Shown here: positions 7,673-8,703 of the stretch, in pieces | How positions within the stretch are numbered: position 1 is the first letter of the stretch | How the letters are laid out: every line of letters starts with the position of its first letter | Origin: a virus | Reading direction: 5' to 3' (one strand) | DNA: 64,000 nt | IMG/VR virus record: IMGVR_UViG_3300031760_000017 | Program-made: the position numbers and the translations under genes | The notes under the pieces: model-generated | The model's input: only the letters and a program-made list of their open reading frames with translations | Database searches by the model: none | Told to the model about the DNA's origin: nothing

Positions 7673-7707
7673 GGTAAATGATTTTTCATTTACCTTATAT
7701 ATTTTTG
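7672..7707. terminator. Bidirectional Rho-independent terminator between convergent genes
   Basis: AGGTAAATGA-TTTT-TCATTTACCT followed by a T-run. Confidence 0.7.
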
Positions 7708-8703
7708 ATGATCTTGTTTAACTTTTTCATTTGAAACATGTGCATAATGTAAAGTAGTTTCAAGCTAAGAATGTCCTAATACACTTTGAATAGATTCAAT
7801 TGGCATGCCTCTGTTTATCGCAGTTGTTGCCATAGTATATCTAAAACGATGTGGAATAATATCTTCAACACCGCTATTCTAAGTTAATTGATGCAATCTT
7901 TTTCTAACTCCTGAAGTACTTAATCTATTATAAGGGAATCTTAAAGACACAAAAAGAGCTTCATTATTATCTTTTCTTTCATTTATATAGTTTTTTATAC
8001 TAACTACAGTTTTTGCATCTATATAAACAGTTCTCCATTTTCCACCTTTTCCGCAAACAATAATTTCCCTCTTATTTAAATCAACATCTTTAATATTTAA
8101 ACCTACACATTCAGAAATTCTAATACCTGATGAAATTAGTAAATCTACAATAGCAATATCTCTATTTGTTTTACAAGCTCTTCTTATCTATTCTATATCT
8201 ATATCAGTGTACTATTGCCTTGGTTTTACATTAGACTTCTATCTTCTTATTCTTACTGAAGGATCTTTCTAAATATACTCTTCTTCATATAGCCATTTAA
8301 AAAAAGATCGTATAATACTTTTTCTTTGATTTAATGTTTCAGTACTTAATGGTTTACCAGTTTTTTTATTTTTAGATATATATTGAATATATAAACGAAG
8401 ATGATTAACAGTTATTTTTTCTAAAGGTAAACTTAAATAGTTTAACATATCCTATAAACACATTTTATATTGTTCTTTACTTTTTTCTGACATTCTACCC
8501 TATTGCTCTTTTGCCGCCATATAAATATAATAAGCTTCTGGTAATTGATAATTTTCATCTTTTAAATCTACAAAATTTGGTGTGATATTATAATTAAGAG
8601 AATAAGTATTTAATATATTTTTAATTTTATCTATATCCTATCTTTTAAAAAACGGCTATATTTTTAAACAAAATCCTTCAACAAAAGATAAGTTTGAAGA
8701 CAT
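7690..8703 (-). CDS. Tyrosine recombinase or integrase (XerC/D-like), 337 aa, TAG-recoded with about 10 in-frame TAGs
   Basis: Reverse-strand translation gives ...IIPHRFRYTMATTAINRGMPIESIQSVLGHS*LETTLHYAHV... The motifs HxxR and LGHxxxxTTxxY are present. The frame is continuous from the ATG at 8703 to TAA 7690-7692. Confidence 0.75.

Follow-up and report, generated by a model that had tools for sequence, protein, structure and literature searches.

We analysed a 64,000-nucleotide stretch of viral DNA (IMG/VR record IMGVR_UViG_3300031760_000017; "the window" below means this whole stretch), centring on a gene for a XerA-like tyrosine recombinase that lies among tail and fibre genes and on a short near-palindromic sequence upstream of it. 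Reading through TAG restores long open reading frames (ORFs) across the window, among them a 2883-aa tape-measure-like protein (71 TAG) and a 1563-aa tail protein (26 TAG), and we therefore regard it as a TAG-recoded phage of about 28% GC. The recombinase gene is the final one of a minus-strand tail/fibre operon running from 27263 to 7690. This operon meets the plus-strand tail and baseplate genes (3262-7672) at a terminator-like hairpin that is 100% conserved in L006/L007 (related loci are given by L numbers throughout). An earlier interpretation made from the letters alone (the sequence-only reading) had described the two flanking blocks as divergent; they are convergent and face each other. 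It had also placed a recoded XerC/D-like integrase beside host-range genes, which is borne out by the frame, the TAG count and Pfam, with XerA as the best match. The AT-rich gap that it reported beside the gene was found at 8704-8912 (209 bp, about 17-24% GC). Table 1 lists the features of the locus. Megablast of positions 3000-14000 against GenBank phages gave no match.

Table 1. Features of the recombinase locus and the adjoining fibre genes (positions in the window).
Feature	Position	Strand	Details
Bidirectional terminator-like hairpin	7667..7700	.	15-bp stem; between baseplate gene (ends 7672) and recombinase (ends 7690)
XerA-like tyrosine recombinase gene	7690..8703	-	337 codons; ATG 8703-8701, TAA 7692-7690; from frame and Pfam
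Shine-Dalgarno sequence AAGGAGA	8712..8718	-	8 nt ahead of the recombinase ATG; read from sequence
Leader hairpin and U-run	8735..8770	-	15-bp stem, 6-nt loop; ahead of the recombinase, at the fibre operon end
AT-rich spacer	8771..8895	-	About 17-24% GC; recombinase promoter probably inside (inferred)
Candidate core recombination site AGTAA-ACTAAAC-GCCC-ATTTAG	8896..8918	-	Cassette boundary; overlaps the TAA of the CotH gene
CotH-domain fibre-module protein	8913..10181	-	422 aa, 0 TAG, 41% GC; CotH 5.9e-28; last cassette gene
Lectin-like fibre-module protein	10190..11014	-	274 aa, 0 TAG, 41% GC; weak Laminin_G_3 match
Tail fibre	11014..12114	-	366 aa; N-terminal ~120 codons of resident composition, TAG at 11997
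HExxH (HEITH) metallopeptidase-like protein	12107..12424	-	Peptidase_M78 22.4 bits, cut-off 22; phrog_1233, function unannotated

The recombinase frame contains ten internal stop codons, every one of them TAG (10/10), and terminates at TAA; its TAG content (3%) is among the highest of the window's genes. The product matches Pfam Phage_integrase (E 2.8e-37) together with N-terminal SAM-like core-binding domain(s), and residues R195, K222, H285, R288, H311 and Y320 were invariant among homologues (n = 49). Comparison with recoded relatives, TAG being treated as sense, gave dN/dS values of 0.06-0.16; the gene is intact, and purifying selection acts on it. ORF and Pfam analysis found no second recombinase gene in the window. 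In the recoded relative L100 (513-1523) the recombinase is broken into two ORFs of 135 and 142 aa, representing either a pseudogene or an assembly error.

The nearest NCBIfam family was XerA_Arch (NF040815), for which the protein scored 215.5 bits (cut-off 220). It fell far below the equivalog cut-offs of XerC (174.3 vs 335) and XerD (153 vs 329.6), and the integron-integrase profiles TIGR02249 and NF011946 gave 78.5 (cut-off 265) and 46 (cut-off 435), respectively. Among solved structures XerA and XerD come closest, the best PDB matches being the XerA entries 4a8e and 5hxy. An AlphaFold model (pLDDT 91) was built on P0001, a protein 96% identical to the window recombinase. Its best structural match was XerA 5hxy; it also matched Tn1549 Int, IntI4, lambda Int and Cre, with Cre far below XerA. 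Residues 1-35 of the model form two helices followed by a linker, an N-terminal extension at the place where an arm-binding domain would be, and neither the Pfam search of the recombinase nor the P0001 model revealed an arm-binding domain of the lambda type. SroF was among the structural matches, and a recombinase-fold repressor of the SroF/YopR type was considered; this candidate was rejected because the catalytic residues are all invariant here. XerA is a single-subunit enzyme that acts on a palindromic site, and the profiles and the model are best explained by an active single-subunit tyrosine recombinase of this kind.

A candidate site for such an enzyme lies ~190 bp upstream of the recombinase start. 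It has the form (AGTNA)ACTAAAC-GCCC/GGGC-ATTTAG (17-22 nt) and occupies 8896-8913 at the far end of the interval 8771-8912, in which the sequence-only reading had put an attP; the attP and temperate interpretation itself is unsupported. An alignment of the window with close relatives showed that each of these sequences has AACTAAACG(CC/GG)CATTTAG immediately 3' of the stop codon that ends the preceding gene. The exact 17-mer is present in 33 IMG/VR stretches, and the five bases upstream of it (AGTNA) are conserved although they were outside the query. Nearly all 33 instances follow the stop codon of a large fibre or receptor-binding protein (RBP) gene, with GDSL esterase, Metallophos, beta-helix or BppU_N domains. 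Downstream lies either a recombinase of the window's clade (about 12 cases, at 100-770 bp) or a holin/endolysin gene. Wherever the available sequence reaches far enough upstream of a recombinase relative, the site, or a variant that retains one half-site and the centre, is found 100-540 nt ahead of the gene, and the pairing spans 96% to 53% protein identity, genomes of 25-53% GC and both genetic codes. No second or inverted copy beyond chance was detected in the window, and none in any recombinase-bearing locus.

Of 35 instances of the site, 34 have GCCC or GGGC at the centre and nearly none the palindromic GCGC or GGCC, whereas chance matches to the site in bacterial genomes are divided between asymmetric (25) and palindromic (28) centres. 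Phage pairs that have recently exchanged sequence have matching centre classes. An asymmetric centre between inverted arms is a hallmark of a directional recombination site, and the asymmetry, together with the shared class in exchanged pairs, would fit an overlap region that sets orientation. We infer that the near-palindrome at 8896-8918 is most likely the cognate site of the recombinase.

Related or additional elements were seen at several other loci. In Terrisporobacter phage TPELB_ph1 (PP197244; L150, 5621-5644) a perfect palindrome, TGCACAAT-N8-ATTGTGCA, lies one base past the fibre stop codon; the recombinase of this phage is 38% identical to that of the window, and its palindrome differs from the window site but sits at the equivalent position. 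L096 (9555-9810) carries a small membrane-peptide ORF together with the repeat AATGGGCATTTTT in four or five copies. An extra partial site flanks an inverted ribbon-helix-helix-like gene in L014/L019 (L014, 62-470) and a gene for a 30-aa hydrophobic peptide in L003 (9208-9335). The extra partial sites of L096, L014 and L003, which lie between the RBP gene and the recombinase, look like a small cassette array.

Comparison of the window with L006/L007 gave 95% identity over 5.5 kb up to the site and zero similarity past it, these relatives carrying a NAGPA-domain gene in place of the CotH gene. From the site onward L100 matches L009 at 97.8% identity, and its other flank is 98.2% identical, up to the site, to L020, a standard-code phage of 46% GC, so that a recoded and a standard-code phage have a 98%-identical cassette in common. 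Six more pairs break at the site (L014/L020, L101/L035, L101/L014, L104/L105, L112/L113 and L109/L037); in these >130-400 nt are shared on one side and homology ends 0-15 nt from the site centre. As judged by alignment, the homology breakpoints of otherwise near-identical phages lie at the site. Identical junctions were present in independent samples (L006/L007 and L096/L097/L098), and the fibre ORF of the window is continuous across the left cassette boundary; an assembly chimera is for these two reasons an unlikely source of the cassette junctions.

In the window, the segment that ends at the site (8913 to about 11750) has 41% GC against 25% around it (25-28% for the genome) and no TAG in 696 codons, compared with 1.7-3% TAG in its resident neighbours. 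From its composition, this cassette looks as if it was imported recently from a standard-code phage. A standard-code siphophage, L153, encodes within its RBP module a homologue with 75% identity to the CotH protein, and the pair of lectin-like and CotH genes occurs both there and in L152; an exact look-up and a viral-contig scan with the CotH protein gave nothing. The left boundary of the cassette lies inside the tail fibre gene, after the N-terminal anchor, and the fibre sequence from ~11750 downstream, the C-terminal two thirds of the gene, belongs to the GC-rich cassette. Identity between the window and L152 falls from 93-100% to <40% at about 11714-11773.

L152 (ENA ERZ28613388 scaffold_2074, 9230-9520) has a backbone 95% identical to that of the window and lacks precisely the recombinase ORF, while the spacer and hairpin are kept; the recombinase is thus accessory. 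The site centre of L152 has three C->T changes, with 4/17 differences overall, compared with ~5/110 in the adjacent spacer. Decay of the site following loss of the recombinase would be suggestive support for a link between the two.

The leader hairpin had been presented in the sequence-only reading as a perfect 16-bp palindrome beside the integrase; a part in recombination is unsupported. The palindrome is present, with a stem of 15 bp and a 6-nt loop, and its folding and its position ahead of the recombinase point to another role. As RNA it has a predicted energy of -21.6 kcal/mol (z = -5.6 vs shuffled sequences); it is on the transcribed strand and followed by a U-run, with the recombinase start codon 31 nt downstream. 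All the relatives examined share this layout, with a U-run behind a strong hairpin and the recombinase start a few to ~35 nt further on. The structure is retained with compensatory changes in L006 and L152, and despite unrelated sequence in L008, L009, L001, L096 and Clostridium phage phiCp-D, whose recombinase is 31% identical to the window's. The Shine-Dalgarno sequence is frequently sequestered by the hairpin in recombinase relatives, and standard-code relatives have an extended -10 promoter and a first hairpin upstream (read by eye). No second copy of the hairpin arm beyond chance was found in the window, and Rfam gave nothing meaningful for the window locus or for the leader of one relative. 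The hairpin is thus predicted to be a terminator or attenuator of the recombinase leader, not a crossover site. The spacer between hairpin and site is kept in L006 and L152 and replaced by ~40 nt in L008 and L009; its sequence is unconserved beyond the closest relatives.

Standard-code relatives have the gene order tape measure, Dit, Tal, RBP, site, recombinase, holin and endolysin, followed later by a separate integrase with a repressor. A second integrase is found elsewhere in L096, L099, L001-L003, L109 and TPELB_ph1, and a repressor too where visible. In TPELB_ph1 the order is fibre, Xer-like 'integrase', holin, endolysin and a second integrase of the large serine type; this phage is an active prophage of a culture and was obtained from particle-protected DNA.

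We propose that the single-site XerA-like module is a crossover point for the exchange of host-range cassettes between phages, and we put the probability of this at slightly above one half. Cassette exchange, and not resolution, is then what we infer as the selected role. The gene, its structured leader and the site would make up one module, widespread between the fibre and lysis genes of Clostridia-type gut and rumen phages. Sites on two phage genomes, that of the phage and that of a co-infecting phage or resident prophage, would recombine and join the fibre module to the remainder of the other phage; another crossover, this time by homology within the conserved N-terminal anchor of the fibre, would finish the replacement of the cassette. 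Such exchange would account for a TAG-free cassette of 41% GC in a recoded genome. Expression of the recombinase would be limited twice, in translation by TAG decoding and in transcription by the terminator-like hairpin. As its translation would need TAG decoding, the recombinase may be grouped with the TAG-rich (structural, lysis and other) genes of the phage.

A wider version of this proposal is more tentative. The module might be a phage-borne platform for capturing host-range cassettes, on which unrelated phages trade RBP cassettes and small accessory genes by site-specific recombination, also across the code boundary. With similar caution, such a platform could be integron-like in function without being an integron, its recoded enzyme made only once TAG is decoded.

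Several observations weigh against cassette exchange as the role of the module. A single site adjoining the recombinase gene is exactly what a multimer-resolution system looks like. With 5-7 conserved bp, the arms are short for the core site of a tyrosine recombinase, and the pairing of recombinase and site is drawn from sequence association. The site is also present in many phages without a nearby recombinase, so its function may be regulatory or that of a boundary, with recombination merely seeded there. Several small genes in a methyltransferase-rich region of L015 (1680-2375) and L039 (288-3691) have sequences of the form A[C/A]TAAA-N5-6-ATTTAG directly before their GGAGG ribosome-binding sites; these sequences do not fit a recombination site. 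Some contigs may be chimeric across the short shared site, and the decay argument drawn from L152 concerns one genome.

The strongest competitor, which the sequence-only reading had named as a third option and which we regard as appreciably less probable than cassette exchange, is that the recombinase resolves multimers or circularises the genome in the manner of P1 Cre/loxP or Xer/dif, the cassette breakpoints being a by-product as at a loxP hotspot. It stays viable because its molecular mechanism would be identical to that of an exchange module. The best family and structure matches (XerA, XerD) agree with it, matches on plasmids (37-44% identity) carry the annotation xerA, and phiCp-D combines the same gene order with ParM, a plasmid-partition protein, which hints at such a role in some relatives. 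The window also encodes gyrase- and ligase-like replication proteins, identified by eye from translations. However, relatives such as L096, L099 and TPELB_ph1 are temperate siphophages that integrate by means of their own integrase and have no obvious need for dimer resolution, and in L152 the recombinase is dispensable. Resolution also leaves unexplained why the position at the fibre/lysis boundary is conserved and why the site occurs in phages that have no recombinase.

It is rather unlikely that the site has nothing to do with the recombinase and is instead an operator, RNA-processing or boundary element, the breakpoints resulting from short-homology recombination and the enzyme using another site. 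About two thirds of the viral instances are followed by holin/endolysin genes and not by a recombinase, the element is only operator-sized, and the sequences ahead of several ribosome-binding sites in L015/L039 are related to it. Against this, the element moves with the recombinase into an unrelated recoded backbone that has no downstream holin, and neither an operator nor a hairpin would explain the avoidance of palindromic centres. Moreover, 17 identical bases are short for homologous recombination, and a diverged relative has another palindrome at the equivalent position.

The recombinase is probably neither a lysogeny integrase nor a fibre-flipping switch, two of the roles suggested by the sequence-only reading. 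A lysogeny integrase with attP in the gap 8771-8912 would agree with the Phage_integrase domain, with matches to PHROG 'integrase' families and with a site adjoining the gene, as is usual for attP, yet we consider it very improbable. The integrases of recoded temperate phages avoid in-frame recoded stops (preprint 10.1101/2021.08.26.457843), whereas this gene has ten TAG codons, and the standard-code relatives carry their integrase and repressor as a separate module. A scan of 185,579 bacterial species genomes for the exact site returned 53 chance-like matches (23S rRNA, random taxa), none with the conserved flank and none with an adjacent recombinase, so that neither an attB nor the integrated phage expected from a temperate lifestyle was found in this set. 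The absence of an arm-binding domain and the lack of sequence conservation of the gap in L008 and L009 also speak against it, and no other lysogeny gene was seen in the 64-kb window. The regions downstream of the gene have no second site, and insertion of the recombinase between copies of a duplicated site was likewise rejected. A Rin- or Rci-like fibre invertase or shufflon that changes host range by flipping fibre segments has a precedent in the Rin shufflon of bifidobacterial prophages (PMC6109161), but is the least credible reading, as there is no second or inverted site, repeats across 3000-19000 (direct or inverted) are AT-rich chance matches with no significant inverted repeats around fibre segments, and the fibre-module genes all lie on one strand without promoterless reverse segments. 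Judged by what the sequence-only reading had itself named as refuting (no integrated relatives, no inverted repeats, Xer-type clustering of the enzyme), both readings fail.

We compared the module with known systems. The Rin shufflon has an XerD-like armless tyrosine recombinase beside an RBP gene, additional to the lysogeny integrase, with a crossover site directly 3' of that RBP gene; it has several 11-bp rix sites and invertible alternative C-terminal segments (Mavrich et al. 2018, PMC6109161). The window recombinase resembles it, as compared by description, in being armless and beside fibre genes, with a site 3' of the module and relatives that have an extra integrase. It differs in having one site and nothing invertible, and in a pattern that indicates exchange between genomes and not inversion within one. 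Rin is thus an analogue in position but not in mechanism, since we found no inverted site, inverted repeat or reverse fibre segment.

P1 Cre/loxP consists of one recombinase and one site with an asymmetric spacer beside the recombinase gene, and acts as a recombination hotspot between co-resident genomes. loxP is 34 bp long (13-8-13), compared with the 17-22 bp conserved at the window site, and the fibre/lysis-boundary position and the cassette pattern have no counterpart in P1. Archaeal XerA/dif and Xer-type plasmid or phage resolution systems provide the best sequence, profile and structure matches of the recombinase; dif, however, is longer (28 bp, 11-6-11), and the two-helix N-terminal extension and the host-range-module context set the window apart. 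As in an integron, the recombinase lies beside a site with cassettes of foreign composition, the site is just 3' of the cassette ORF, and a few relatives (L003, L014/L019, L096) have extra partial sites around small genes. Unlike the folded attC sites of integrons (57-141 nt), the window site is a compact duplex palindrome, and the recombinase is co-oriented with the cassettes and downstream of them. Long cassette arrays or attC-like hairpins were not seen in the window or in the relatives examined.

The recoding of the window bears on what TAG encodes. One TAG of the endolysin (37098-39383), at residue 36, falls in the column of the catalytic Glu of the GH73 glucosaminidase motif, a residue that is invariant (111/111 homologues), and five further TAG columns are mostly Glu. 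TAG columns of the recombinase are mostly Glu or Asp (n = 90 homologues), and at the same positions recoded relatives have GAA/GAG 13 times versus CAA/CAG 5 times. Log-likelihoods favoured Glu over Gln at TAG in both proteins, and Glu codons, but not Gln codons, are depleted in the TAG-rich genes of the window. From these comparisons, TAG is probably decoded as glutamate and not as glutamine, whereas database translations of the relatives place Q at TAG positions. No suppressor tRNA was found in the window or in nine related loci, and the searchable literature yielded no account of TAG->Glu in phages. Three paralogous GIY-YIG-like genes (by eye) lie among the replication genes (42712-43452, 49147-50091 and 50902-51528); a conserved LEEC motif appears in them as LEXC or LXEC with TAG, a further hint of Glu.

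Host range is the main variable in phage ecology and phage therapy, and its evolution is usually ascribed to homologous recombination, mutation or dedicated diversifiers such as diversity-generating retroelements (DGRs) and invertases. If our proposal is true, a dedicated site-specific module at the end of the fibre genes, both marking that boundary and exchanging the fibres, would be a further route. It would comprise one protein and one 20-bp site, directly usable for engineered fibre swaps, and would account for the second, puzzling 'integrase' between the tail and lysis genes of many Clostridia-type phages. The recoded copy suggests in addition that an alternative-code phage can import standard-code genes ready-made, and that some 'integrases' of recoded phages break the rule of recoded-stop avoidance. 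If TAG is Glu, annotation pipelines that assume code 15 mistranslate the window's lineage.

Two further regions of the window were noted. Upstream of the tail fibre, where the sequence-only reading had seen an ImmA-like HEITH peptidase, a small HExxH protein is indeed encoded; its M78 match is marginal and no repressor adjoins it. The end of its gene overlaps the fibre start codon, and the protein is 95-100% conserved in L152. It seems to belong with the other genes of the fibre operon, and a role in immunity is not evident. At the start of the window a tRNA cluster (396-1395; Gln-TTG, Gly-TCC, Arg-TCT and Cys-GCA) is followed by a gene (1464-3014; 41% GC, 0 TAG) for a 516-aa DUF2828/DUF7788 protein that PHROG lists as 'RNA-binding protein'. 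The same synteny of tRNA cluster and DUF2828/DUF7788 gene is present in a distant recoded relative, L005, with a different set of tRNAs.

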